Assembly: GCA_045563015.1 (NCBI GenBank)
Contig: JBJKUQ010000001.1
Location: 1-59,097 of the forward strand
Source: Alphaproteobacteria bacterium
Lineage (GTDB): Bacteria > Pseudomonadota > Alphaproteobacteria > Methylaequorales > Methylaequoraceae
DNA: 59,097 bases
Direction: 5' to 3'
Part shown: piece by piece, positions 27,401 through 40,976 of the stretch
How the letters are laid out: each line of letters starts with the position of its first letter
Position numbering within the stretch: the stretch's first letter is position 1
Translations under genes and position numbers: made by a program
The notes under the pieces: model-generated
What the model saw: the letters and a program-made list of their open reading frames with translations, nothing else
The model's database searches: none
What the model was told of the DNA's origin: nothing

Positions 27401-28355
27401 TTTGGGCTCTTGTTAGCCTTTCATTAATTGTTTTTCCAATGCCATAGTTTGGAATTGGTGATACAACAATTCTTTTCATTGATAATTTATCAAGTTTTCT
27501 CATGTGATCATATAAATTATGTGCTGCTTCATTCAAATCTCCTTTTTCAGATAAATTCAATTTTGGTTGAAAATTAATTTTATCTTCATTTCCAAATATT
27601 AAGTATGCGTCACCTCTTTCAGGGTTCGAAATATTCATTATTAGTGGTGTTGATGGAGCGTAATGTTTATAAAGTTGCCCGGGTGATTTAGGTTTTTTTT
27701 CACTCTTAACACTAGACTCATCTTTTACAATTAAATTATGTTTATTTTTAATATTTTCCTCTGATAATGCCCCAAGTCTTCTTAAAGCATAAGGATTACA
27801 AGAAAGGTCTAGAATTGTAGATTCTAAGCCAATTTTTGATTTACCAGAATCAACGATAAGATCAATTTCCTTTCCAAATGAATCCAGAACATGTAGAGCG
27901 CTTGTAGATGAAATATACCCACTTTTATTAGCACTTGGTGCAGCAATGGGTCTATTGAATTTTTTTAAAATTTTCTGAAAAACACTCGAGTTAGGCATTC
28001 TGACTGCCATTGTTTTTAAACCTGACACTGCTAAGCCGTTAATTAAATCATTATTCTTTTTAGGTAAAATTAAAGTTAATGGTCCTGGCCAAAAGTGATT
28101 AGCTATTTTTTTTGCTTCATCTGAAAAGGTTACAATTTTTTCTGCCATTTCCAGTGAATTCACATGAACGATTAAAGGGTTATGATACGGTCTATTTTTT
28201 AGTAGGTATAATTTTTTTATTGCAGATGGGTTAGACGGGTCGCAAGCCGCACCATAAACAGTCTCAGTTTTTAAAGCAATGAGTTTGCCATTATTTAGGT
28301 ATTTCACTGCTTTATTAATCGAATATGAAGATTCCCTTAAAACATTATTTTTCAT
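27393..28355 (-). CDS. tsaC: L-threonylcarbamoyladenylate synthase (Sua5 type, with C-terminal domain)
   Basis: TETVYG, KNRPYHNPLIVH, FWPGPLT, AAPSANKSG, GLESTI, SPGQLYKHYAP. Confidence 0.94.
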   Translation of the reverse strand: MKNNVLRESSYSINKAVKYLNNGKLIALKTETVYGAACDPSNPSAIKKLYLLKNRPYHNPLIVHVNSLEMAEKIVTFSDEAKKIANHFWPGPLTLILPKKNNDLINGLAVSGLKTMAVRMPNSSVFQKILKKFNRPIAAPSANKSGYISSTSALHVLDSFGKEIDLIVDSGKSKIGLESTILDLSCNPYALRRLGALSEENIKNKHNLIVKDESSVKSEKKPKSPGQLYKHYAPSTPLIMNISNPERGDAYLIFGNEDKINFQPKLNLSEKGDLNEAAHNLYDHMRKLDKLSMKRIVVSPIPNYGIGKTINERLTRAQNG

Positions 28356-28430
28356 TAATCATAATATATGAGAAAATAAAAAAACTTCAAAGGGTTGATG
28401 TTTATTATGAATTTTTTAACTTTAAGCATT

Positions 28431-28660
28431 TCATGACTTTAACTTTAATTTTTTAAGTTTATTAATGTAATATTTTTCCCATCCGTTGGGCGCCGGTAAA
28501 AGACAACTCTTTGTATCAATTTTTTTATCACCAATTTTACAATTATATTTTTCAAGTTGTTTTTTTGTTGAAAGTAAGTCGTTATCAAGATTTTCTAAAC
28601 AACCTGACCTAACTTCTGATACAAAAATAGTTAATATTAATACATATATTTTATTTTCAT
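28431..28660 (-). CDS. Small exported hypothetical protein (~76 aa; needs +1 A in the run after ATG)
   Basis: Strong AGGAG SD then ATG 28660. With one extra A it reads MKNKIYVLILTIFVSEVRSGCLENLDNDLLSTKKQLEKYNCKIGDKKIDTKSCLLPAPNGWEKYYINKLKKLKLKS*. Confidence 0.45.
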
Positions 28661-28805
28661 TATTTCTCCTTTTTTAACTTTAAAATATTGAAGCAAATTT
28701 ATTTACCAAATTTATTATTACAATCTATATAATTCACATTATGAATGAGAATATTCTTTTTTAATTTTATATAATAAATTTGTGGATCCAAAATTTTATA
28801 GGATA

Positions 28806-28907
28806 ATGTATATTATTGCATTTTTTGCCCTTGTAATTGCAGTTGTTACAATTTATGAAGTATTAAGTGAAATTAATAATTTTTTTACTGAACGAATTAA
28901 AATCTAA
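28806..28907 (+). CDS. Small hypothetical membrane protein, 33 aa (not in ORF track)
   Basis: AGGA SD; MYIIAFFALVIAVVTIYEVLSEINNFFTERIKI*, one TM helix; convergent with gph. Confidence 0.4.
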   Translation: MYIIAFFALVIAVVTIYEVLSEINNFFTERIKI

Positions 28908-29554
28908 TTAATGATATCTTTTAATTCTTTGATAGTTAGACTTGGTTTCACACCCTCATTTAATTTCCCATATCCATATTTGACATAAACAGAATACATA
29001 CCCAATTTATTAGCTGGAATTATGTCGTTGTTACTATCTCCTATGAACATTGTCTCATTTTCCTTTATTTGTAATTCCTGAATACAATAAATAAGCATTT
29101 CAGTATGGGGTTTAAGTTCAACTTTTCCATCTGAGCCCGCAATATAATCAAAATAATTATCCAGTTTAAAATCATTAATAATTTTTTCTGCTAAAAATTT
29201 CTTTTTGTTCGTACACAAACATATTTTTATATTATTTTTCTTCAGGTGATTCAAAACATCCAATGCACCAGAATATAGTGTTGTTTTATTTGTGCAATTC
29301 TTTGAGTAATAATCTATAAAATCATTAACAAGAATTTTAATTTTCTGATCATTCATTTCTTGATTAAGAAAAAAAAGACCCTTCCTTATCATTGCTTCAG
29401 CCCCAGAGCCTACAAGATCACCAATTATTTCCTTTGGAATTTTCTTTAAACTTTCCTTTGCAAATATAAAATTTAAAGTATCAAGTAGGTCAGGTCCACT
29501 ATCAATAAGTGTTCCGTCTAAATCAAATATTACGCATTTAATATTTTTTTTCAT
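28904..29554 (-). CDS. gph: HAD-family hydrolase, phosphoglycolate phosphatase-like
   Basis: FDLDGTLIDS, CTNK, KPHTEM, FIGDSNND, YGYG. Confidence 0.85.
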   Translation of the reverse strand: MKKNIKCVIFDLDGTLIDSGPDLLDTLNFIFAKESLKKIPKEIIGDLVGSGAEAMIRKGLFFLNQEMNDQKIKILVNDFIDYYSKNCTNKTTLYSGALDVLNHLKKNNIKICLCTNKKKFLAEKIINDFKLDNYFDYIAGSDGKVELKPHTEMLIYCIQELQIKENETMFIGDSNNDIIPANKLGMYSVYVKYGYGKLNEGVKPSLTIKELKDIIN

Positions 29555-29622
29555 AATTTAATTTATATTTTTAAAAAGTATTTATAATACCTTTAATTAA
29601 ATAAATCTCTTAAATTACAAAA

Positions 29623-30934
29623 ATGTCACTCTCTGTTATAATTTTAGCTGCTGGCAAAGGCTCAAGAATGAAATCAAGTCTCCCCAAAGTTTTTCATGGG
29701 ATAGGAAATTACCCAATGCTTTATCATGTTTTGGATACCAGTGAAAAACTAAACCCTAAATTTATTACGATGGTAATATCTGATTCGTTAGAAAAATATT
29801 AGAGAGAGTATAAAAAATAAAAATAGTAAGGTAAATTTTGCTGAGCAAAAAAAACAATTAGGAACCGCTCATGCAGTAATGTCAGCGTTTAGTCAAAAAA
29901 AAATATTACAATCAAATGAAACTTTAATCTTGTATGCAGATACTCCATTAATTTCTGCACAAAACATTAGAAATTGTCTGAAAAATTTTAAAAAAAATAA
30001 TTTTGATTTATGTATTTTAGCTATGTTAGCTGAAAATACTGATAACTCATATGGCAGATTGATTGTTAGTGGTAAAAAATTAAAAAAAATAGTTGAAAAA
30101 TCTGAATTAAATAAAGATCAAAAAAATATTAAGTTATGTAATTCAGGTATTATGATGGTAAAAACAGATATATTATTTGAATGTCTAAAAGTAATAAAAA
30201 ATTCAAACAAGAAAAAGGAGTTCTATTTAACAGACTTAGTTGAAATACTTAGTAAAAAAGAAAGTAAAGTTTCTTATTTTAATTGTAAATTAGGGGAGAC
30301 GATGGGAGTAAATGATAAAAAAGAATTATCTATTTTAGAAAAAAAATTTCAGTCAGATAAGAGAGAAAATTTTTTAAAAAAAGGAGTAACCTTGGTTGAT
30401 CCCGAATCTGTTTTTTTTAGTAAAGACACAAAAATCGGTAAGGACGTGATTATTCATCCAAATGTTGTTTTTGGACCTGGTGTAAAAATAGGAAATAGTG
30501 TTGAAATAAAAAGCTTTAGTCATTTGGAAAATACCATTATCGGTGAAAATGTTTCAATAGGTCCATTTGCTCGGTTAAGGGATAATACAATTATTGATAA
30601 AGATACAAAGGTGGGAAATTTCGTAGAGATTAAAAAATCAAAAATAGCTAAAAATGTTAAAATTTCTCACTTGTCATATCTAGGTGACTCAACTGTGAAA
30701 AAAAATACAAATATTGGTGCAGGATCAATAACATGTAATTACGATGGAATTAAAAAGAATAAAACAATTATAGAAGAGAATTGTTTTATTGGTTCAAATA
30801 CTTCGCTTATAGCACCATTGAAAATAAATAAAAACTCGGTGATAGGTGCAGGCACTGTCGTTGATAAAAATATTAAAGAGGGCACAGTGGTATATAGAAA
30901 ATCACAATTAATTAAAAAAAATAAAAGAAAGTAA
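29623..30934 (+). CDS. glmU: Bifunctional UDP-GlcNAc pyrophosphorylase/GlcN-1-P acetyltransferase (frameshift near 29797-29806)
   Basis: ATG 29623 gives [23 protein letters not shown]. Removing one T joins it to [39 protein letters not shown]. Confidence 0.95.
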
Positions 30935-32757
30935 TGTGCGGAATATTTGGAGTATTTGCTAACTATTCAGTAACACCTTCAATCATTGAAGGTTTAACAA
31001 AACTTGAATATAGAGGATACGACTCATCTGGGATATCTATATTAGATGAAAAAAAACAAATTAAGACAATTAGATCAAAAGGTAAACTTAACAATTTAAA
31101 AGAGAAATTAAAAAAAACCAAATTTGATGGAAATATTGGAATTGGTCATACCAGATGGGCAACCCATGGAGTTCCTTCAACGATTAACGCGCATCCACAT
31201 GTATCAGAGAGCGTTTCAATAGTTCATAATGGAATCATAGAAAATTATAGTTTCTTGAAACAAATATTATCGAAAAAAGGATATAAGTTTAAATCTCAAA
31301 CTGATAGTGAGGTTATTGCTCATTTATTAGATGATCAATTAAAAAACCATTCACCTGAAGTTGCTATTAAAATGACTTTATCAAAATTAGAAGGCGCTTT
31401 TGCACTAGCAATTTTATTCAAAGATTTAGGTATTTTAGCCGGTGCACGTAAGGGAAGTCCACTTGCACTTGGTATTTCAGAAGATGCTATTTTTCTTGGA
31501 TCTGATTCAGTTGCTTTAGCTCCATTCACGGAAAAGATTATATTTCTAGAAGAAGGTGATAGTGTTTTTATTGATGGAATGAATTACCAAGTTTACAGTG
31601 AAAGTTTTAAAAAGGTTAAAAGAAAACTAAGTATTTCATCATACACTAAAGATAATTTAGATAAAGGAAACTTTAATCATTACATGCAAAAAGAAATTTA
31701 TGAGCAACCACATATTATTGGCGATTCTTTGTCTAGATTTTTAGATCCTGTTAACAAAATAATACAAATGCCTGATATTAAAATTGATTGGAAAAAAATT
31801 TCTAAAATTAATTTAATTGCTTGCGGTACATCTTTTTATTCGTGTCAAGTTGCAACATATTGGATTGAAAAAATTGTTGGTGTAAGTTCAACAGCTCATT
31901 TGGCATCAGAGTTTAGGTATAAACCTATAGTTGAAAAATCAGATAATGTTTTATCAATATTTATTTCTCAATCTGGTGAAACTGCTGATACTTTAGCTGC
32001 ACTAAAGTATGCTAAGAATAATAAAAGTAAAACTTTAAGTTTAGTTAACGCCTCGGAAAGTAGTATTGCAAGAGAATCACATTTTGTTATTTCTATAGCT
32101 GCTGGTCCTGAAATTGGTGTGGCCTCGACTAAAGCATTCTCGGCACAATTAAGTGTCTTAGCATGTTTATGTTTGATAATGGCAAGAAAAAAAAAGAGAA
32201 TCTCCAAAAAAAAAGAATTGCTTTTGACTGAGAGTTTACTCGAAATACCTTCTAATATGTTAAGTGTTCTTGAGATTCATAAAAAAATTAATAAAGTCAC
32301 AAAAAAAATCGTAAATTCTAAAAGTGCTTTATTCCTTGGACGTGGATTAATGTTTCCGATTGCAATGGAAGGTGCACTGAAGTTGAAAGAAATTTCTTAT
32401 ATTCATGCTGAAGGATATGCGTCCGGAGAAATGAAGCATGGACCAATTGCATTAGTTGATGATAAAGTTCCAGTTATTATTATTGCACCTAAAGATTTTT
32501 TGTTTGAAAAAAATATCTCTAATATGCAAGAAATAATGGCAAGAGGAGGTGATGTTATCTTAATCACAGATGAAAATGGTAAAAAGGAAATTAATGATAA
32601 TTCAATTAAGAAAATTGTATTACCAAATGTAAACGAATTTGTGCAACCAATATTATATTCTATTCCTGTTCAATTAATTGCATATTTTGTTGCTGTAAGT
32701 AAAGGAACAGATGTTGATCAACCAAGAAATCTAGCTAAATCCGTTACTGTTGAATAA
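30934..32757 (+). CDS. glmS: Glutamine--fructose-6-phosphate aminotransferase
   Basis: MCGIFG, LEYRGYDSSG, GHTRWATHG, SQSGETADT, EIGVASTKAF, DVDQPRNLAKSVTVE*. Confidence 0.99.
   Translation: MCGIFGVFANYSVTPSIIEGLTKLEYRGYDSSGISILDEKKQIKTIRSKGKLNNLKEKLKKTKFDGNIGIGHTRWATHGVPSTINAHPHVSESVSIVHNGIIENYSFLKQILSKKGYKFKSQTDSEVIAHLLDDQLKNHSPEVAIKMTLSKLEGAFALAILFKDLGILAGARKGSPLALGISEDAIFLGSDSVALAPFTEKIIFLEEGDSVFIDGMNYQVYSESFKKVKRKLSISSYTKDNLDKGNFNHYMQKEIYEQPHIIGDSLSRFLDPVNKIIQMPDIKIDWKKISKINLIACGTSFYSCQVATYWIEKIVGVSSTAHLASEFRYKPIVEKSDNVLSIFISQSGETADTLAALKYAKNNKSKTLSLVNASESSIARESHFVISIAAGPEIGVASTKAFSAQLSVLACLCLIMARKKKRISKKKELLLTESLLEIPSNMLSVLEIHKKINKVTKKIVNSKSALFLGRGLMFPIAMEGALKLKEISYIHAEGYASGEMKHGPIALVDDKVPVIIIAPKDFLFEKNISNMQEIMARGGDVILITDENGKKEINDNSIKKIVLPNVNEFVQPILYSIPVQLIAYFVAVSKGTDVDQPRNLAKSVTVE
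32668..32757 (+). repeat. glmS 3' end (direct repeat copy 1; attTn7-type region)
   Basis: The last 45 nt (32713-32757) match 34066-34110 at 41/45; weaker similarity extends back to 32668. Confidence 0.9.
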
Positions 32758-32842
32758 ATGCGTATTCAACCGCTCAGGTAATGTGAAATGATTTTCTTTA
32801 TGCAAGTTGATAAATTTGGCATACTGATTGCTTTAATTAAGT

Positions 32843-34009
32843 ATGTTAATTGAATTAGATTATTTAAAAAAATTCAAATGTGTGGGAAGTGATTGTTTAA
32901 ATACATGCTGCGGAGGATGGTCAGTTTATGCTCAGCAAGAGGCTTTGGATAACATAAATAATAAAATTAAAAAATTATCCACAAAAAAAAAATATGACAA
33001 TTTTTCTAAAGCATATAAAAAGTTTAAGAGCTCTAATGATGAAGTTTATATATTAGCAGATAAAAATAATACATGCATGTTTTTAGATAAACATAAACTA
33101 TGCACGCTTCACAAGCAATTTCACCATTCAATTTTACCAACTGGTTGTCAACAATTCCCAAGAAGATTTATATATTTTCCTAAATCAGAATTTAATTCTG
33201 GATCATTTGGTTGCCCTGAAATAAGTCGAATGGCTTTATTTCAAAATAGAATACTTGATGTGGTTATTGACGGAAAAGAAAAAAAATCTGAGAGCATAAA
33301 TTTCCTTAATTTAAATGAAGGTCATGATAAACAATTAGATAGATATGCTATCAATGGACAAAAGATTATTAATCTAATTTATAAATTATTTTTAGATAAA
33401 AATAATATTCATCTAATATTAAGAGTTGTTAATCAAGTGACAATTGACAGAGAATATTTGGAGTCTAAACCTAGTCAAATAGAGGAGATCTTCTTTTTTA
33501 TTTATGAAGTCTTAAAAAAGGAGAATATTCTTTCAGTAAATAAGGACAAGTTTCAGTTATCATTTTTCAAAAATTTTTTCTCTAGTATAATTCAAGATGA
33601 TTTACACCTTCCTGTAAAAAAAATTTTAGAAAAGAATTGTAAAGACTTTTTTGTAAATAACAAAAAATCTATATTAAAATTTAAAAAAAATAGAATTCTG
33701 TTTGATAAATTATTAAAAAAACATTCATATTTTGAACAAAACTATTTTATCAATGAAATCTTAGGTAAACTTCATTGTTTCACAAGAAAATCATTGGATT
33801 CTCAGGAGATGATAGGAAAAGCAATTTTAATTTATTCAATTTCAAGGTTTTTTTGTATTACTTGTTTATCAAAAAATAATGAAAAAAATATAGAATATGA
33901 TTTTTTAAAAATTCTGTCTCAAACAACTAAATGTTTTGATGGAATTAATTTTAGAAAAATGATTCAGTTAAACAAGAATATTTTTAATGAATTAATCTTA
34001 CTATTTTAA
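32843..34009 (+). CDS. Flagellin lysine-N-methylase FliB-like (YkgJ/CxxCxxCC-type Fe-S protein)
   Basis: FKCVGSDCLNTCCGGW, CMFLDKHKLC, GCQQFPR, SFGCPEISRMAL: the FliB N-terminal Cys pattern. Confidence 0.8.
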   Translation: MLIELDYLKKFKCVGSDCLNTCCGGWSVYAQQEALDNINNKIKKLSTKKKYDNFSKAYKKFKSSNDEVYILADKNNTCMFLDKHKLCTLHKQFHHSILPTGCQQFPRRFIYFPKSEFNSGSFGCPEISRMALFQNRILDVVIDGKEKKSESINFLNLNEGHDKQLDRYAINGQKIINLIYKLFLDKNNIHLILRVVNQVTIDREYLESKPSQIEEIFFFIYEVLKKENILSVNKDKFQLSFFKNFFSSIIQDDLHLPVKKILEKNCKDFFVNNKKSILKFKKNRILFDKLLKKHSYFEQNYFINEILGKLHCFTRKSLDSQEMIGKAILIYSISRFFCITCLSKNNEKNIEYDFLKILSQTTKCFDGINFRKMIQLNKNIFNELILLF

Positions 34010-34019
34010 TTTGGCAACG

Positions 34020-34110
34020 GTTCAACTCCATGCATATTTTGTATCTGTTTTTAAGGGTAACAGTTGTTGATCAACCAAGTAATCTAGCTAAATCCGTTAC
34101 AGTAGAATAG
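34020..34110 (+). repeat. Diverged duplicate of the glmS 3' end (direct repeat copy 2; gene fragment)
   Basis: gttgatcaaccaagtaatctagctaaatccgttacagtagaatag encodes VDQPSNLAKSVTVE*. Upstream gttcaa..gcatattttgt..aagggt aligns to VQLIAYFVAVSKG with one extra base. Confidence 0.88.
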
Positions 34111-34241
34111 TCATTTTATTTGTTACTATCAAGGTGATAAATTTATTGTTATAACTTATATAATAATTAACGTATTTGCAAAAAAGGATATTGAAATACT
34201 TGTTTGCGAGTAAGTTTTGTTTTGAATTGAAAGGAGATAAA

Positions 34242-34829
34242 TTGTATTTAAAAATTTTTTCTTTGTTTTGCTTTTTAATATTTCATTTTGACTTAAAGGC
34301 CGAGGGTATTGTCTCAATGATAAGAGAAAATCCGAATTTATCAACTTTTTACTCATACATAAACAACACAGAACTTGAAGCAACCTTACAACAAAAATTC
34401 CCATGGAATTGGACAATTTTTGTTCCTAATAATAAAGCTTTCGATGCTTTGCCTAAAAGGGTTTATGATGAAATTTTATCAGATACTTCTCTGAGAAAAA
34501 TGTTGATTATGGATCATATTTTAATAGGACAAAAATCGAGTAGTAACTTAAACTCTAAAATTACAGAAGAGATTACTGTTACTGATAAACCAATTCAACT
34601 TTATAAAAGAGAAAGTTTATACGTAAAGGATATGGTAGTTGTGAATGAAAATACATCTGCTGATAATGGTGTTATCCACGAGATAAATTGTGTTATGTTT
34701 GTCCAACCAAGCCCAGAAGATGACAGGTTAACTAAATTACAAAAAGATAAATTTCCAATTACTTCATGTTGTATGAAAACAGAAAATGAAATTGATTCAT
34801 GGTTGGGGTCGGTTAACTCAAGATTCTAA
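34242..34829 (+). CDS. Fasciclin (FAS1) domain protein
   Basis: AGGAG SD then TTG 34242; signal peptide; NLSTFYS, WTIFVPNNKAF (H1) and ADNGVIHEINCVM (H2). Confidence 0.85.
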   Translation: MYLKIFSLFCFLIFHFDLKAEGIVSMIRENPNLSTFYSYINNTELEATLQQKFPWNWTIFVPNNKAFDALPKRVYDEILSDTSLRKMLIMDHILIGQKSSSNLNSKITEEITVTDKPIQLYKRESLYVKDMVVVNENTSADNGVIHEINCVMFVQPSPEDDRLTKLQKDKFPITSCCMKTENEIDSWLGSVNSRF

Positions 34830-34840
34830 TCTTTGGAAAG

Positions 34841-35038
34841 TTGGATTACTATTCAATAATGAAAGAAAAAATTGGATTAGATAAATTTTGTGATTATCTC
34901 TCAAAAATAAATATGGATTTTACTGATTTCATACTAGAAGATTGGGAATCTGAAGAAGAAGGAAATATAAAATTGAATGGTTTAACTGAAGAGGAATGGA
35001 TGAATTTATATTTGCAATTTTTAAAAAAAAATAGATAA
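34841..35038 (+). CDS. Small acidic hypothetical protein
   Basis: 65-aa ORF 12 nt after the fasciclin gene, same strand. Confidence 0.55.
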   Translation: MDYYSIMKEKIGLDKFCDYLSKINMDFTDFILEDWESEEEGNIKLNGLTEEEWMNLYLQFLKKNR

Positions 35039-35117
35039 AAAGAATTAATCAACTTAGAAATTCTTTAAATTTTTTTATAGTGGAGTGAGAAAATACCTTT
35101 AGAGATAAAATAAAGAA

Positions 35118-35897
35118 TCATTTAATTTTTTTACATGTAAAAGGGAAAGTTATAGTTCCTTTTTTAAATTTTTTATTTTTTTCGAAACATGAAATATTTT
35201 TTGGTCCATTTGACCAATAATTATGTGGGTTTAGAGAACTATAAAAGTCTTTTATAAAGTATTTGCAACCCCAGTTGTCTTTTTCTTCTTTTTTACAATA
35301 ACGTTGACCAATCTGTAAATGCAAATGTCTAACTCTTGCCATACATCGATAATTAACTTTCTCTGGAAGTTTTGCAAGTATATCCCCTCTTTTAACATAA
35401 TCATTCTCTTTAACCATGAATTCTCCAACATGACCATAAATGGTAATAAGGTTTTTCCCATCTAATGCTTTTCCGTGATCAACAACCAATGTAGCTCCCC
35501 AACAGTCCTCAATAGTGGTTTCCAAAACTTTACCATCTGCAATTGCAATTATTGACTGGTTTTTTTTACCAATAATATCAATGCCTTGATGAATGTTATC
35601 TCTAGGTCGAGTATTTACTCCACTCATACTTCCAAAATCAGATAAAATTGGATTGATTTCGTAGCCATCAGGACTAAAATCTTTAGCATATTTAATGCAA
35701 TATTCTAAGACTCTAACATATTCGCCTTTATAACTTGGATGATCATGATACCATTCCAAAGAATTTTTACATTGTTCTGCTAAAATTGCTTCTTTTTTGT
35801 TTTCAAGGTCTCTTGAAATTGAAGAAAATGAAAATAAAAAGCATGAAGACACAAGAATTATTTTTAAAGCTTTTTTAATTTTTAAATGGTAATTCAT
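35118..35897 (-). CDS. M23 family metallopeptidase
   Basis: Signal peptide; HQGIDI (HxxxD), IYGH, HLHLQI (HxH). Confidence 0.88.
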   Translation of the reverse strand: MNYHLKIKKALKIILVSSCFLFSFSSISRDLENKKEAILAEQCKNSLEWYHDHPSYKGEYVRVLEYCIKYAKDFSPDGYEINPILSDFGSMSGVNTRPRDNIHQGIDIIGKKNQSIIAIADGKVLETTIEDCWGATLVVDHGKALDGKNLITIYGHVGEFMVKENDYVKRGDILAKLPEKVNYRCMARVRHLHLQIGQRYCKKEEKDNWGCKYFIKDFYSSLNPHNYWSNGPKNISCFEKNKKFKKGTITFPFTCKKIK

Positions 35898-36041
35898 AAT
35901 AATTATATATTGTTATTTTTCTGAAAAAAAAGAAAATACTTATCAATTTTTTTAAAATATATAAAATTTTAAAATTACGATAATTATTTAGTTTTTCGAT
36001 ATTTAGTAAAATTGTATTTAATTAAGAGAAAGGAATTTTTA

Positions 36042-36488
36042 ATGTTAAATGTATATTTGTCAGGTGAAATACATACTGATTGGAGAGATGAAATTATTAA
36101 ACTATGCAAAAATGAGAATTTGAGTATTAAGTTTTCGTCTCCAACTACAAATCATGAAGCTTCGGATAATTGTGGAGTAGATATATTAGGTGAAGAGGAG
36201 AAAAATTTTTGGAAAGATAGTAAAGGTGCTAAAATTAATTCTATTAAAACAAAAAAATCAATTAAAGATAGTGATGTAGTTATTGTGAAGTTTGGAGAAA
36301 AATATAAACAATGGAATGCTGCCTTTGATGCTGGGTATGCTTCAGCGTTAAATAAATCAATTATAGTTATACACAATGAAGAAAATCAACATGCTTTAAA
36401 AGAAGTAGATGCTTCTGCATCTGCTGTTGCAAAAGATCAACACCAGGTTGTAAGAATATTAAAATATATTACTGAGGGTTCGCTCTAA
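36042..36488 (+). CDS. YtoQ family protein (nucleoside 2-deoxyribosyltransferase-like fold)
   Basis: MLNVYLSGEIHTDWR, GEKYKQWNAAFDAGYA, HALKEVDA. Confidence 0.85.
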   Translation: MLNVYLSGEIHTDWRDEIIKLCKNENLSIKFSSPTTNHEASDNCGVDILGEEEKNFWKDSKGAKINSIKTKKSIKDSDVVIVKFGEKYKQWNAAFDAGYASALNKSIIVIHNEENQHALKEVDASASAVAKDQHQVVRILKYITEGSL

Positions 36489-36586
36489 GCTTAGTTTAAA
36501 ATGAGATTAAACAAAGAAATTCATGAATATAACACTGGGATACTATGATCTTAAGAAAAATTATAATTTTTAAATATTAATTAGAA

Positions 36587-36913
36587 ATGTATTCTTATTT
36601 AGTTCTTTTTTTTGCCATTGTATTGGAAGTATCAGGAACAATGCTTTTACCGATATCAAAAAATTTTACAAAATTAATTCCAAGTCTAATTTTAATTTTT
36701 TCTTATGGGATGTCTTTTTACTTACTTACATTAATAACTAATAAGCTTCCTCTTGTAATAATTTATTCTTCATGGGCTGGTTTAGGAATATTTTCTGTAG
36801 CAATTTTAAGTTATTTTTTTTATAAACAATCATTAAACTGGCAAGTCATATTAGGATTATTTTTCATAGTGATTGGAGTAATAATTGTTAATATTTTTAA
36901 AGGTAAAGTTTAG
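36587..36913 (+). CDS. SMR/DMT family small multidrug transporter (EmrE/QacE-like)
   Basis: 108 aa, 4 TM segments, AIVLEVSGT (membrane Glu), IYSSWAGLG. Confidence 0.9.
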   Translation: MYSYLVLFFAIVLEVSGTMLLPISKNFTKLIPSLILIFSYGMSFYLLTLITNKLPLVIIYSSWAGLGIFSVAILSYFFYKQSLNWQVILGLFFIVIGVIIVNIFKGKV

Positions 36914-36925
36914 TATGAAGTTTTT

Positions 36926-37171
36926 ATGAAAAAATTTGTAAAAGTAATAAGGTGGTTTGGTGTAAATTTTTTTAAAACCTTCTTTTTAATCTTCTTTTGT
37001 TTTATAGTTTATTTTATAGTTATTCTATCAACATCATTTTTTCAGATATTCAATTTTTTTAGTGATATGTTTATTTCAATAACGAATATTTATGAAGAAA
37101 TTCAAAAACATATTAATGAATACAATTGGAAAGAATTTGAAATACCAAAAAAAAAAGATGATGTTGTTTAA
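36926..37171 (+). CDS. Hypothetical membrane protein
   Basis: 81-aa ORF with a hydrophobic stretch, co-directional with neighbours. Confidence 0.55.
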   Translation: MKKFVKVIRWFGVNFFKTFFLIFFCFIVYFIVILSTSFFQIFNFFSDMFISITNIYEEIQKHINEYNWKEFEIPKKKDDVV

Positions 37172-37234
37172 GGTTTGAAAACTTAATTATATTCGTTAAG
37201 TTATATTAGTGAATAATATATTTAGTATTTTGAT

Positions 37235-37639
37235 ATGAGATTCTATAATTTTTTTATTTTTTTCATAAGCTTGGTAATGTTTGAAATTGTAAATTCTAAC
37301 GACCCTTACGATAATAATCTTGATGGTAAAAGACTCATTTGTATTTCTAATTCAGATAGTATTGAAGACTGGGGAGTGAGATTCTTATCTGATAGAAAAG
37401 TAGTTTTATTCTCTTTAGATAAATTTTTATATGAAATATATAAATATCAAAGAACATATAGGACTGATCTAAGAAATATAAATATTTTTAAGGGAAACGA
37501 TATTGAGTTTGTTATAAGTAGACAATCATTAAGATTTGGAAATAAACAATGTACAAAAACATCAACTGACCCCAGGATTATTCTTGAAAAAAGAATTATA
37601 GATATAAAAAATAAAAAAACTAAGTTTAATAAAATATAA
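37235..37639 (+). CDS. Hypothetical exported protein
   Basis: Signal-peptide-like N-terminus; two Cys. Confidence 0.6.
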   Translation: MRFYNFFIFFISLVMFEIVNSNDPYDNNLDGKRLICISNSDSIEDWGVRFLSDRKVVLFSLDKFLYEIYKYQRTYRTDLRNINIFKGNDIEFVISRQSLRFGNKQCTKTSTDPRIILEKRIIDIKNKKTKFNKI

Positions 37640-37658
37640 AAATTTAATTTATAATTGA

Positions 37659-38102
37659 ATGTTTTGTAAGTTCATAATTTTTGTTCTTTTTACCCTATTT
37701 TTTAATGTTACTTTTGGAAAAGATATTAAATTTAAATGTAGAGTGATTGATGAATTAGAAAATAGCCAACAAGCAAAGAAACTTTATTTAGAAAGACCTT
37801 TATTCCTTTTTTTAAATAAAAAAAAGAAATGGCTCTATGATTCACTCGAAAAAAAATTAAAAAATAAGGAAGGGTATTTTAGTTATAATTTCAGAACATT
37901 ATTTAATGAGAATGATCAATTTTATTTTTTCAAAATTTTCAAATTCCAAACTAAAAAAATGAGAATAAAAGAATCATATGATTTCATTATATTAGATAAA
38001 ATAGATGGTTTTTTTAGATTCGTTAAAAATTATTTAGATGATGATGAGAAAATATTTTTTTCATCAGAATTAAGAGGATATTGTGAAAAAATATCTGAAT
38101 AA
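37659..38102 (+). CDS. Hypothetical exported protein
   Basis: Signal peptide; Cys near both ends (FKCR...GYCEK). Confidence 0.6.
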   Translation: MFCKFIIFVLFTLFFNVTFGKDIKFKCRVIDELENSQQAKKLYLERPLFLFLNKKKKWLYDSLEKKLKNKEGYFSYNFRTLFNENDQFYFFKIFKFQTKKMRIKESYDFIILDKIDGFFRFVKNYLDDDEKIFFSSELRGYCEKISE

Positions 38103-38214
38103 GAAGTTTGCTTCTCTTTTTGTGATATTGATTACAATTTTAGTTAGTATTTTTTTTAATTATAAAAGCAAACTTGAAAGGTACCCTCAAATTTTTCAAA
38201 GTAAAGAAAAGTAA
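38083..38214 (+). CDS. Small hypothetical membrane protein, 43 aa (not in ORF track)
   Basis: GAGGA SD then GTG 38083; MKKYLNKKFASLFVILITILVSIFFNYKSKLERYPQIFQSKEK*. Confidence 0.45.
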   Translation: MKKYLNKKFASLFVILITILVSIFFNYKSKLERYPQIFQSKEK

Positions 38215-38217
38215 ATA

Positions 38218-38607
38218 TTATTTTTTTGCAATTACTCTGTCACATAGAATCTCATTTATAAAATAGATACTTGTGCCTTTTTGTGAAGATTTCCAATTTT
38301 TGTTAGCTGCTTTTTTTACAATATTTTTTCCCTGACCCATATTCATATTATATGCTTCATAGAAAATATCTCTTGTTTTTAAATTACTACAATTTATTTC
38401 TGAAAAAACTACAAGTGATTTCATTTTATTTTGTTGTTCTTTCTTATAATTAACTAATTGAGAAAAAAAAATTCTATCACCTCGTTTTTTAATCGAATTT
38501 GTATTGATGAAGAGATCACTTGTATTTGTTGAAAAAAGTTTGAACCAGGAACTGTATGCTTGGAAGGGAATACAAATAAAAGTAATTATTATAATAATTT
38601 TTTTCAT
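38218..38607 (-). CDS. Exported protein, surface-adhesin E-like
   Basis: Signal peptide from ATG 38607; W..LFST...LFINTNSIKK.GD, EINC, LCD pattern. Family call is from resemblance. Confidence 0.6.
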   Translation of the reverse strand: MKKIIIIITFICIPFQAYSSWFKLFSTNTSDLFINTNSIKKRGDRIFFSQLVNYKKEQQNKMKSLVVFSEINCSNLKTRDIFYEAYNMNMGQGKNIVKKAANKNWKSSQKGTSIYFINEILCDRVIAKK

Positions 38608-38662
38608 ACTAGAAATTATTTTAGAAAAAAATGATACTGATGTTAAGTAATTAAATTTTAAT

Positions 38663-39175
38663 ATGAGAAAACTTACATTTTTTTTTGTTATCCTCTTTTT
38701 TTTTAACAATGTAATAAGTGATGAAAAAATGAATTGTAAAACCGATAGACAGAGTGGACTAAGTTTTATTGGAAAAGATTACCTTAGAATTATTGAGTAT
38801 TTTGGGCTAGACAATTTCTCAATAATGTTATCAAGAAATAGAGATGATATAATCAAAAATCAACTTAAGCAAAATAATGAAAAGGGAAAAATTAAAAGAA
38901 TTAAAAATGTTCATTTTATTGAACTAATTTTAATGAAATCTAATGGATATCCAGTGGTTTTTCATTGTTCATGGAGACATAGAATAGATTTTGATAAGAT
39001 TATCGACAATAATTTTGAATGTATTGAGCAAAAAGAAAAAAGGGATTTATTTAGCCTTAATTACAAGGGCCAGTTCTCTTATTCATCTGCATTCAAAATT
39101 TCTAAAAACAAGATGAATACTTTGCACTCTCTTTTTGGTAAATGTAAAGTTTCAAAAGGCTATATTTCAAAATAA
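38663..39175 (+). CDS. Hypothetical exported protein
   Basis: Signal peptide; MNCK...GKCK terminal Cys pair plus two internal Cys. Confidence 0.6.
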   Translation: MRKLTFFFVILFFFNNVISDEKMNCKTDRQSGLSFIGKDYLRIIEYFGLDNFSIMLSRNRDDIIKNQLKQNNEKGKIKRIKNVHFIELILMKSNGYPVVFHCSWRHRIDFDKIIDNNFECIEQKEKRDLFSLNYKGQFSYSSAFKISKNKMNTLHSLFGKCKVSKGYISK

Positions 39176-39200
39176 TATTTAATTTTAAGGATTAGAGTAA

Positions 39201-39404
39201 ATGAAAAGTAAGTTCGTATATAAGGTTTTAGACTATATAAATATCCAACATCATAATTCTTCTGATGTTGAGAACTTACTCAATATTCAATATGGTAAAG
39301 AAGGTTTTGAGTTAATTGGAGTTTTAGATATGGGTGAGAACAATACCAATAAAGATGGAAAAAGCTCAAGATTTAGGTATATATTTAAAAAAAATGAGAA
39401 GTAA
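39201..39404 (+). CDS. Small protein, DUF4177-like
   Basis: F.YKV...LLN..YGKEGFELIGV...YIFKK pattern. Confidence 0.55.
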   Translation: MKSKFVYKVLDYINIQHHNSSDVENLLNIQYGKEGFELIGVLDMGENNTNKDGKSSRFRYIFKKNEK

Positions 39405-39576
39405 CGTAAAAATTAAAGATATGAATGATAATGTTTATTTAGTAAAAGATTTAAGACAATTTATCAAACATATTAAGGAGTATCATAACTCAGGATCTTC
39501 AATACATGAAGAAAATGGTTTTTATTTTTTTATTGATGATAAATTCAGAAATTTTTTATTTAATCTTGATACTTAA
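39394..39576 (+). CDS. Small hypothetical protein
   Basis: ATG 39394 overlaps the previous gene's end; ends 12 nt before cysS. Confidence 0.5.
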   Translation: MRSNVKIKDMNDNVYLVKDLRQFIKHIKEYHNSGSSIHEENGFYFFIDDKFRNFLFNLDT

Positions 39577-39587
39577 ATTAACAAACT

Positions 39588-40976
39588 ATGGAAATTAATA
39601 TTTATGACAGTCTAACAAGAAAAAAAAGGGAGTTTGTTCCTATTAAAAAGGATGATGTAAGAATTTATGCATGTGGTCCAACTGTATATGATTATGCTCA
39701 TATAGGAAATGCTCGAATGTCTGTAGTAACTGATTTACTTGTTAGAGTATTAAGAACTAAGTTTTCAAACGTAAAGTTTGTTTCTAATATTACGGATATT
39801 GATGATAAAATTATTGAAGCATCGTTACTTCAAAAAAAATCAATTCAAGAAATAACTGAAAAATTCCATAAAATTTATAATAATGATATGCAAAGAATTG
39901 GAGTGCAAGCTCCAGATAATCAACCAAAAGCAACACAACATATAAAAGAAATGATTTCAATGATTCAAAAACTTTTAGAAAATAATTGTGCTTATGTAAC
40001 TGAGAGTCATGTTATTTTTGATATAAAAAAATATAAATTTTATGGTTGTTTATCTGGAAGATTAAGTGATCAGCAAATTGGTGGAAATAGAATTGAGGTT
40101 GCAGAATTTAAAAAAAATTCTGGTGATTTTATTTTATGGAAACCAAGTAAATTAAATGAACCTAGTTGGGATTCACCATGGGGTAAGGGTCGTCCAGGGT
40201 GGCATATTGAATGCAGTGCAATGGCAGAAAAATGCTTAGGCTCCCCTTTTGATATTCATTGTGGAGGCGTAGATTTAACTTTTCCACATCACGAAAATGA
40301 GATTGCTCAGTCCTGTTCAATAAAAAATATAAACTCTGATCCAGAAACTTTTAGTAAGTATTGGTTTCATAACGGGTTTGTAACTGTCAATGGAGAAAAA
40401 ATGTCAAAATCACTTGGTAATATTACATTGGTAAATGAATTACTAAAAAATTATTCTGGTGATGTTGTAAGATATAGTCTGTTGACATCGCATTACAGAC
40501 AGCCACTTGATTGGTCGAAAACAATCCTAGAGCAATCTAAAAAAACATTAGAAAAATTTAAAAAGATAATTGATGATTGTAATCTTGAAAAAGACATTTT
40601 TCGTAAATATTCTGATGAAAAGTATATAAATAATTTTCTTTATGATCTCTATGATGACCTTAATACTCCTAGAGCATTTGCAACTTTGAACTCATGGATT
40701 GATAAGATTAAAAAGAAATCTGAAAGCAAAGAAACTATAATTTCTTTTATTAAGTGTCTAGAAATTTTAGGAATAAATCTAAATAAAGATAGATATAAAA
40801 ATAAAAAAATAGATAAATCAGAAGAAGAAGTAATTATAAAATTAATTGAAAATAGAGACAATGCACGAAAAAATAAAGATTTTGAAAAAGCTGATGAAAT
40901 AAGAGATAAACTTAAGGAGTTAAATATATCAATAGAGGATTCTGAAGATGGAACTAAGTGGAAAAAAAATAATTAA
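39588..40976 (+). CDS. cysS: Cysteine--tRNA ligase
   Basis: YACGPTVYDYAHIGNAR, GRPGWHIECSAM, HCGGVDLTFPHHENE, KMSKSLGN. Confidence 0.99.
   Translation: MEINIYDSLTRKKREFVPIKKDDVRIYACGPTVYDYAHIGNARMSVVTDLLVRVLRTKFSNVKFVSNITDIDDKIIEASLLQKKSIQEITEKFHKIYNNDMQRIGVQAPDNQPKATQHIKEMISMIQKLLENNCAYVTESHVIFDIKKYKFYGCLSGRLSDQQIGGNRIEVAEFKKNSGDFILWKPSKLNEPSWDSPWGKGRPGWHIECSAMAEKCLGSPFDIHCGGVDLTFPHHENEIAQSCSIKNINSDPETFSKYWFHNGFVTVNGEKMSKSLGNITLVNELLKNYSGDVVRYSLLTSHYRQPLDWSKTILEQSKKTLEKFKKIIDDCNLEKDIFRKYSDEKYINNFLYDLYDDLNTPRAFATLNSWIDKIKKKSESKETIISFIKCLEILGINLNKDRYKNKKIDKSEEEVIIKLIENRDNARKNKDFEKADEIRDKLKELNISIEDSEDGTKWKKNN

Follow-up and report, generated by a model that had tools for sequence, protein, structure and literature searches.

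A duplicated glmS 3' end probably marks the distal boundary of a recombinase-less cassette in a serine recombinase-associated island of SAR11-like Alphaproteobacteria

The composite islands of the staphylococcal cassette chromosome (SCC and SCCmec) occupy the 3' end of rlmH (orfX) in staphylococci and are moved by the Ccr large serine recombinases (LSRs). Here, we describe an island behind glmS in a 59,097-nucleotide stretch of an alphaproteobacterial genome of the family Methylaequoraceae (GenBank assembly GCA_045563015.1, contig JBJKUQ010000001.1, positions 1 to 59,097; hereafter the window, meaning the whole of the DNA analyzed). In this island, a single gene for a FliB-like lysine N-methylase is enclosed between glmS and a displaced copy of the glmS 3' end. 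The copy is probably the distal boundary of a one-gene cassette without a recombinase, which would lie in an island used by LSRs and be passed on by homologous recombination. In SCC, as apparently in the glmS island, an LSR targets a conserved housekeeping gene within its last codons and leaves it intact, and direct repeats of the gene end lie between stacked units, some of which have no recombinase. The glmS island differs in its target, in its hosts, which are streamlined marine Alphaproteobacteria, and in its units of 0.3 to 3.5 kb, which often hold one gene. In addition, the C terminus of the associated LSR copies that of GlmS, a helix-turn-helix (HTH) gene lies at the other end of the site, and the system is known from sequence alone.

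Additive islands punctuated by 20-bp tRNA-Lys repeats occur in "Ca. Methylopumilus" (PMC10872708). Like the glmS island, such tRNA-anchored islands and tycheposons combine a fixed hotspot in streamlined planktonic bacteria with variable cassettes, mostly of unknown function, and with direct repeats of about the last 20 nt of the target. However, the anchor here is a protein-coding gene, the recombinase is of the serine rather than the tyrosine type, and the island of this genome holds no integrase. Tn7 uses the same conserved gene end (attTn7) as a safe harbor. In contrast to Tn7, the glmS elements have no tns genes, their insertion falls within the last codons and replaces the tail instead of lying about 25 bp downstream, and they duplicate the gene end, rather than generating the 5-bp target duplication of Tn7. 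Integron arrays, too, line up small units, mostly of one gene and poor in promoters, in a single orientation behind a fixed site. Unlike these arrays, the glmS island has no IntI (37 genomes had no PF00589 match in the vicinity of glmS), its recombinase belongs to another superfamily and is usually absent from the host, and its cassettes end in copies of the gene end, without apparent attC hairpins, although no folding test for attC was made. In behavior, the nearest systems are the SCC-type LSR islands at rlmH and the tRNA-anchored additive islands, not Tn7 or the integron. In the literature searched, we found no description of a serine recombinase at the glmS end or of a glmS island in SAR11. 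SAR11-type bacteria are regarded as nearly free of mobile elements. The locus is a defined hotspot on an essential protein-coding gene and bears on the exchange of flexible genes in SAR11-type bacteria.

The conserved anchor of the island is glmS (positions 30934 to 32757, + strand), which encodes 607 amino acids (aa) with Pfam GATase_6/7 and two SIS domains and has homologues in 56 of 61 relatives. A second copy of about 90 nt of its 3' end occurs 1.35 kb downstream in the same orientation. The original prediction on this DNA had claimed that the last 45 nt of glmS recur there at 41/45 identity, with all four differences at third codon positions and weaker similarity over about 90 nt, and both observations were reproduced. 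A 51-nt block (32706 to 32756 versus 34059 to 34109) is identical at 47 positions (92%), and the 38-nt block upstream of it (32668 to 32705 versus 34020 to 34057) shows 74% identity; the offsets of the two blocks, 1,353 and 1,352 nt, reveal a 1-nt indel between them. The whole displaced copy (34020 to 34110, + strand) was recovered by nhmmer (E = 2e-17) and by alignment. A 32-nt glmS-end probe found only these two sites in the window, where none was expected from 100 shuffles, and the same two sites alone across the 1.1-Mb assembly, a metagenome-assembled genome (MAG) of 76% completeness. The genomes of the relatives compared below are also MAGs. The distal junction is crossed by a second metagenome contig (L127) that is 99.9% identical to window positions 33562 to 40006, and the proximal junction, ..ACTGTTGAATAA followed by atNcNtattcaaccgctcagg.., was found again in another species (locus L126).

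The codon-position pattern had been taken to suggest that the copy came from another functional glmS allele. The third-position differences stand, but the family-wide motif ACNGTNGARTRR has three variable positions, which account for three of the four, and the fourth, AGA>AGT, is not synonymous, changing the conserved Arg of DQPRNL to Ser. Codon position is thus not what underlies the pattern. The displaced copy also carries a frameshift in its upstream part and therefore is not a working gene end. Rfam gave no match at E ≤ 0.1 over positions 28000 to 38000 of the window. At the repeat, no terminator-like sites were found, and promoter-like sites were at chance level.

The copy is a mosaic. 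Its left ~50 nt are common to the three FliB-cassette copies (48/55 between the window copy and that of the relative G007, over the left 55 nt) and are nearest to glmS of another genus, that of G007 and L126, with 43/55 matches versus 38/55 to the window's own glmS. The motif TTAAGGG in this left part is also present in glmS of G007 and L126. The right ~40 nt, by contrast, resemble the glmS of whichever genome they lie in (37/39 in the window), and the right parts of the window and G007 copies are about 72% identical. The proposed origin from another glmS allele is thus borne out for the left part of the copy but not for the right. A mosaic of this kind is not the product of a crossover at the A|C position described below; a single homologous crossover or gene conversion within the invariant TGTTGATCAACC can yield it.

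As predicted, exactly one gene separates the two glmS ends. The sole open reading frame (ORF) in this interval, at 32843 to 34009 (+ strand), encodes 388 aa and matches NF038110, the NCBIfam model for flagellin lysine-N-methylase, with 124.6 bits (cutoff, 85) over residues 6 to 363; the protein has no Pfam match. No flagellar genes were seen near it, and the methylase occurs here in a lineage not known for flagella. Paralogues of about 30% identity lie elsewhere in the genome in 19 of 37 family genomes. We refer to the leader, the gene as cargo, and the distal glmS-tail copy as the FliB cassette (32758 to 34110, + strand), which has neither a recombinase gene nor a small HTH gene.

Sequence identities and gene contexts indicate that the FliB unit has been exchanged between genera. 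The closest FliB homologues lie outside the window's own genus, in G007 (86% aa identity) and G010 (74%), and G002, of the same genus as the window, lacks FliB. At the DNA level, the gene is 90.3%, 90.8%, and 82.7% identical to its counterparts in G007, L126, and G010, respectively, compared to 74% for glmS, 70% for glmU, 77% for the M23 peptidase gene, and 83% for the YtoQ-family gene of the flanks. Different genera thus share cassettes whose identity far exceeds that of the core genome. The block from 32793 to 34110 is 89.7% identical to G007 and ends exactly where the tail copy ends. The neighbors of the cassette differ among the four contexts. In the window, FliB and its copy lie between glmS and a fasciclin gene, and in L126, between glmS and the M23 gene. 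In G007, 3.5 kb containing an HTH remnant, a B12-radical-SAM gene, and a Cys-rich ORF separate glmS from FliB, its copy, and the M23 gene. In G010, FliB is preceded by another ORF and a tail and followed by a short tail, another ORF, and the YtoQ gene. L126 and G007 belong to one species and are 98.9% identical over glmU-glmS, and their 3.5-kb difference lies exactly at the glmS end. This end reads GTTGAATAA in L126 and GTGGAGTAA in G007, and its last 7 nt vary with the unit behind them.

Regions of up to 20 kb behind glmS were compared from 20 relatives, and the family set comprised 42 SAR11-like alphaproteobacterial genomes of 0.8 to 2.0 Mb. The flanks of the island are fixed in at least 18 relatives, with glmU-glmS on one side and, on the other, the gene for an M23 peptidase (35118 to 35897, − strand; Pfam Peptidase_M23, in 18 islands) and the YtoQ-family gene (36012 to 36488, + strand; PF11071/TIGR03646, ~80% DNA identity in all relatives). 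Across the family, the M23 gene lies between 0.9 and 5.1 kb from the glmS stop codon. The survey that the original prediction had called for, of variable cassettes behind glmS, showed that relatives carry different ones, many of them closed by a glmS-end copy. A profile of 96-nt glmS ends detected extra same-strand copies of the last ~42 nt, 1 to 3.3 kb behind glmS, in the window and in G007, G010, G016, G018, G020 (two copies), G021, G023, G024 (two copies), and G035; altogether, at least 12 of the 42 family genomes have extra copies on the same strand. The glmS-tail attachment site GATCAACC-N22-ACNGTNGARTRR (32716 to 32757 in the window, + strand), searched as GATCAACC-NANA-N18-ACNGTNGARTRR, gave 36 hits in the 42 genomes, and the 18-nt pattern TCNGTNACNGTNGARTRR gave 49; the reversed control gave none in either case. 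Apart from the annotated glmS ends, the tail copies lie downstream of glmS or at contig starts, and arrays of three or four exist, for example in G036:C13, G025:C9, and G062:C7. All tail copies are on the glmS strand except for one inverted copy in G033.

The exact boundaries of these units follow a common rule. The bases after AC (NGTNGARTRR onward) always accompany the downstream unit, and the ~30 nt before AC accompany the upstream context. A unit beginning with tttcgttttg follows ..ACCGTGGAATGA behind glmS in G016, G018, G021, and G030 and behind a tail copy in G024, and in G023 it stands behind a tail copy reading ..ACTGTGGAGTGA. It is the first unit in the former four genomes and the second in G023 and G024. 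Likewise, ..GTTGAATGA with a unit containing an 80-aa ORF is located behind glmS in G002, behind tail copies in G020, G024, and G062, and behind an LSR gene in G034. The homology of the 42-nt tail copies begins abruptly at the conserved block GATCAACC. In several units, the start codon of the first ORF overlaps, as ATGA, the stop codon of the gene that ends in the site, be it glmS or the LSR gene. With a fixed site, variable content, and direct repeats of the target end, the glmS-M23 interval is an additive flexible genomic island. The central idea of the original prediction, an additive island that has a protein-coding gene as its anchor and no recombinase in cis in this genome, holds.

The inverted copy in G033 (C5:70902-70943), 3.6 kb behind glmS, is the sole opposite-strand copy seen. 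In G013, G014, G017, G021, and G027, a small HTH ORF points away from a weak opposite-strand tail copy. This suggests that some island units sit in either orientation.

An LSR that matches the site was found in the family. The Recombinase domain (PF07508) gave 14 hits, of which 10 are short ORFs in glmS islands, about 80 to 130 aa in length and matching model positions 4 to 53. The relative G034, named "Pelagibacteraceae bacterium TMED65" by its source, encodes an LSR of 588 aa (L099:455-2221) on contig C7, which starts TGGAGTAG. The protein ends in ...IPNHSVTVE* (..tccgttactgttgaatga). The gene is followed by the 80-aa-ORF unit and another small ORF, with the M23 and YtoQ genes 1.2 and 2.2 kb on, and because these come after it, we place the LSR within the glmS island. 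Among LSR homologues in the protein collection, 13 of 69 end in xxTVE, and two homologues without this ending, picked as negative controls, carry a tail mimic 23 to 40 nt past the stop codon and so count as additional positives. In L119, L124, L125, and L129, from organisms of 38 to 55% G+C, glmS lies 6 to 10 kb upstream of the LSR gene on the same strand, and in L124 and L125, the first gene after glmS encodes a small HTH protein. The earlier statement that no recombinase was left in cis holds for this genome, but the recombinase has not simply been lost, as a matching LSR clade exists in relatives. This candidate clade has a predictable site, a nearly universal and highly conserved 40-bp gene end, and could be put to use for DNA integration, provided that it proves to be active.

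A mimic of the GlmS C terminus (..[SAHT]VTVE*) at or just after the LSR end was observed in L099 (G034), L117, L119, L124, L125, L128, and L129, whose hosts have 31 to 55% G+C. Other LSR homologues end in the recurring sequences ..LLKKFTS or ..LKKNRKAA, which may mimic other target genes.

The small HTH proteins (about 77 to 130 aa) resemble the first half of the LSR Recombinase domain and start at the glmS-tail site. They include L073 (G010), L103 (G008), L104 (G026), L105 (G009), L056:188-421 (G016), L125:1150-1431, and L124:3148-3465. Several of their ORFs have no ATG or have it in an ATGA overlap with the preceding stop codon. They may serve the LSR as directionality factors or as partners that bind DNA. 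The sequence TGTATA after several stop codons had raised the idea of a XerCD/dif-like site, which was discarded, as those stretches are the starts of small HTH ORFs.

In the reconstructed attP sites, the left half is the 3' end of an LSR gene, and the right half is the beginning of the HTH unit that follows glmS. In all five elements, the dyad symmetry of the reconstructed site is best, or tied for best, at the A|C of GTNA|CNGT. The numbers of matches were 22/32 for G034, 20/32 for L117, and 18/32 for L125, scores that none of 2,000 shuffles reached, and 15/32 for L119 and 13/32 for L124, reached by 7 and 49 of 2,000 shuffles, respectively. For G034, the two halves were drawn from two contigs, C7 and C54, and their symmetry therefore argues that the HTH unit behind glmS and the LSR are the two ends of one element. 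Because the dyad center agrees with the linkage of the bases after AC to the downstream unit, we infer that the crossover in the window would fall at the A|C of GTTA|CTGT (32746|32747), the AC of GTNACNGT, 11 nt upstream of where the stop codon ends.

The FliB cassette does not share these features. It has no LSR gene, and its virtual attP has only 7/32 dyad matches, a score reached by about 1,560 to 1,610 of 2,000 shuffles. As it combines the lack of an LSR-type attP with a repeat that is part foreign and part resident, its last move was probably by homologous recombination. Most likely, homologous recombination or gene conversion within TGTTGATCAACC, and not an LSR, accounts for its arrival or maintenance in the window, judging by the mosaic. 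The palindrome GTTGATCAAC is a possible resolution point for such an exchange in the FliB copy. For the HTH-type units, a second crossover at GTTGATCAAC with an element-borne 40-nt tail was considered but is not supported, as the 30 nt before AC vary with the host and not with the first cassette.

Taken as a mechanism, the last glmS codons would be the attachment site for integrative elements run by one LSR clade. A complete element would have three components, namely, a small HTH gene with its start at the site, the cargo, and an LSR gene whose 3' end mimics the glmS tail (...SVTVE*). Strand exchange at AC would keep glmS in frame, with each newcomer supplying the last two to three codons, and repeated insertion, decay, and deletion would result in units arranged one behind the other with tail copies between them. 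The tail copy of the FliB unit would then be a 90-nt piece of a foreign glmS whose right half has been homogenized with the resident gene.

Several results weigh against this reading. No LSR, resolvase, or tyrosine recombinase matches were found in the 76%-complete assembly of the window, and a full-length LSR is present in just one of the 42 family genomes, where it lies at a contig start. The recombinase-less cassettes close with tails derived from glmS (DQPRNL..TVE*), not from the LSR gene, and an LSR crossover 11 nt from the end cannot displace 40 to 90 nt of glmS, so that a second process has to be assumed. Moreover, LSRs normally do not integrate into hybrid sites of the attL type, which leaves the formation of stacks unaccounted for. 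Finally, in two scans of IMG/VR for the tail patterns, every hit was a genuine glmS gene from an unrelated organism, and no free element was found.

A bolder version can be put forward tentatively and is doubtful. It holds that the glmS end is a gene-capture platform of streamlined marine bacteria, served by one LSR clade in which the C terminus (...SVTVE*) forms half of its own attachment site. The HTH gene, with its start in the ATGA overlap at the site, would be coupled to the LSR in the circular form and switch to glmS upon integration, and single-gene cassettes would be exchanged in trans. If true, this would be the serine recombinase counterpart of the integron.

The alternative that fares best among the rivals, which we nonetheless consider unlikely, is that the recombinase-less units are still active in an integron-like manner, with an LSR acting in trans to excise them as circles and reinsert them singly at the glmS end. 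It would explain the shuffled order of units between genomes, with breakpoints at ACNGT, and is in line with the existence of LSR elements that use the same site and with the tail-like sequence on both sides of the FliB unit in its four contexts. However, the virtual attP of the FliB cassette lacks dyad symmetry, and its distal repeat resembles the glmS-derived left half of an attB rather than that of an attP. A crossover at A|C also cannot bring about the agreement between the copy's right half and the resident glmS, and the 35- to 45-nt leader after the stop codon differs between the FliB cassettes of G007 and L126.

Homologous recombination might also have acted without any site-specific enzyme, the tail copies being relics of Campbell-type insertions of circles that carried a glmS 3' fragment, followed by recombination between flanks and repeats. 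The mosaic copy, which tracks the resident glmS in each genome with a FliB cassette, is what such a process would leave, and the abrupt start of homology at GATCAACC in the 42-nt copies and the lack of a recombinase in this genome would suit it as well. As a full account it is quite unlikely, however: the 7 to 11 nt after AC always stay with the downstream unit, in contrast to the 30 nt before it, which change freely from host to host, the tail mimics of the LSR genes form a symmetric attP centered on that very A|C, and the partner HTH genes are concentrated in glmS islands.

A remnant of a prophage, satellite, or tycheposon-like element, with a tyrosine integrase that brought its own glmS 3' end, is very improbable. 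Such elements typically restore the target's 3' end, with a displaced copy left behind, and a duplication of 90 nt is more in line with them than with an LSR core. In some distant elements, small (~195 aa) Phage_integrase-family genes also adjoin the LSR. A tyrosine integrase in cis was nevertheless rejected, as all 78 PF00589 matches, from 37 family genomes, lie outside the glmS islands, and no phage genes were seen in the islands and no IMG/VR element with these tails was found.

It is scarcely credible that the repeat is an artefact, that is, a chimeric join at a repeat in a MAG. The contigs of many related MAGs do break 0 to 1.3 kb after glmS, and the window itself comes from an incomplete MAG. 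However, the second assembly crosses the distal junction at 99.9% identity, and L126 and G007 share the order of glmS, FliB, and copy, so that an assembly chimera, named in advance as what would refute the repeat, is unlikely. A Tn7-type explanation, in which the copy is a decoy or second TnsD site (attTn7), deserves next to no credence: the duplicated segment does span the region recognized by TnsD in E. coli glmS, but TnsD (PF15978) is present in 0 of the 42 family genomes, no Tn7 ends or tns genes were seen, and the junctions are confined to the final 11 nt of glmS rather than lying about 25 bp past the stop codon.

Further units follow the FliB cassette in the window, where the G+C content is 21 to 36% per kb (average, ~28%). 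The fasciclin unit (34111 to 34833, + strand; gene at 34176 to 34829; Pfam Fasciclin, E = 4.5e-21) has a block that begins 4 nt past the copy and is 85.7% identical to G002, where the block is preceded by a decayed tail, ..ctatcgttgaatag. A third small unit (34841 to 35090, + strand) contains a 65-aa ORF (34841 to 35038) and shares the block from 34855 to 35041 only with G029, G031, and G016. After this ORF, atagtggagtga at 35079 to 35090 may be the remnant of a decayed tail, although taken alone it is weak evidence.

Short (~195 aa) Phage_integrase-family genes lie directly upstream of the LSR gene in L124 (9394-9978) and L129 (9405-10004). In L128 (8330-8917), such a gene is one gene away from the LSR, and in L125 (2103-2684), it is about 5 kb off on the other strand. 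G034 also contains a second, G+C-richer glmS end, L101 (G034:C59:1-460), which is probably contamination. The HTH unit behind it is nearly identical to L079 (IMG/VR UViG 3300020177_001290), a short contig filed as viral, and C59 also encodes a 191-aa resolvase.

Upstream of the island, glmU (29623 to 30934) is split in the window into a 59-aa and a 351-aa ORF. The frame shifts in an A-rich run near 29790 to 29800, and the conserved QLGTAHAV motif continues in another frame. The split reflects either a homopolymer error in the MAG or a genuine frameshift. In G007, glmU is a single ORF of 436 aa.

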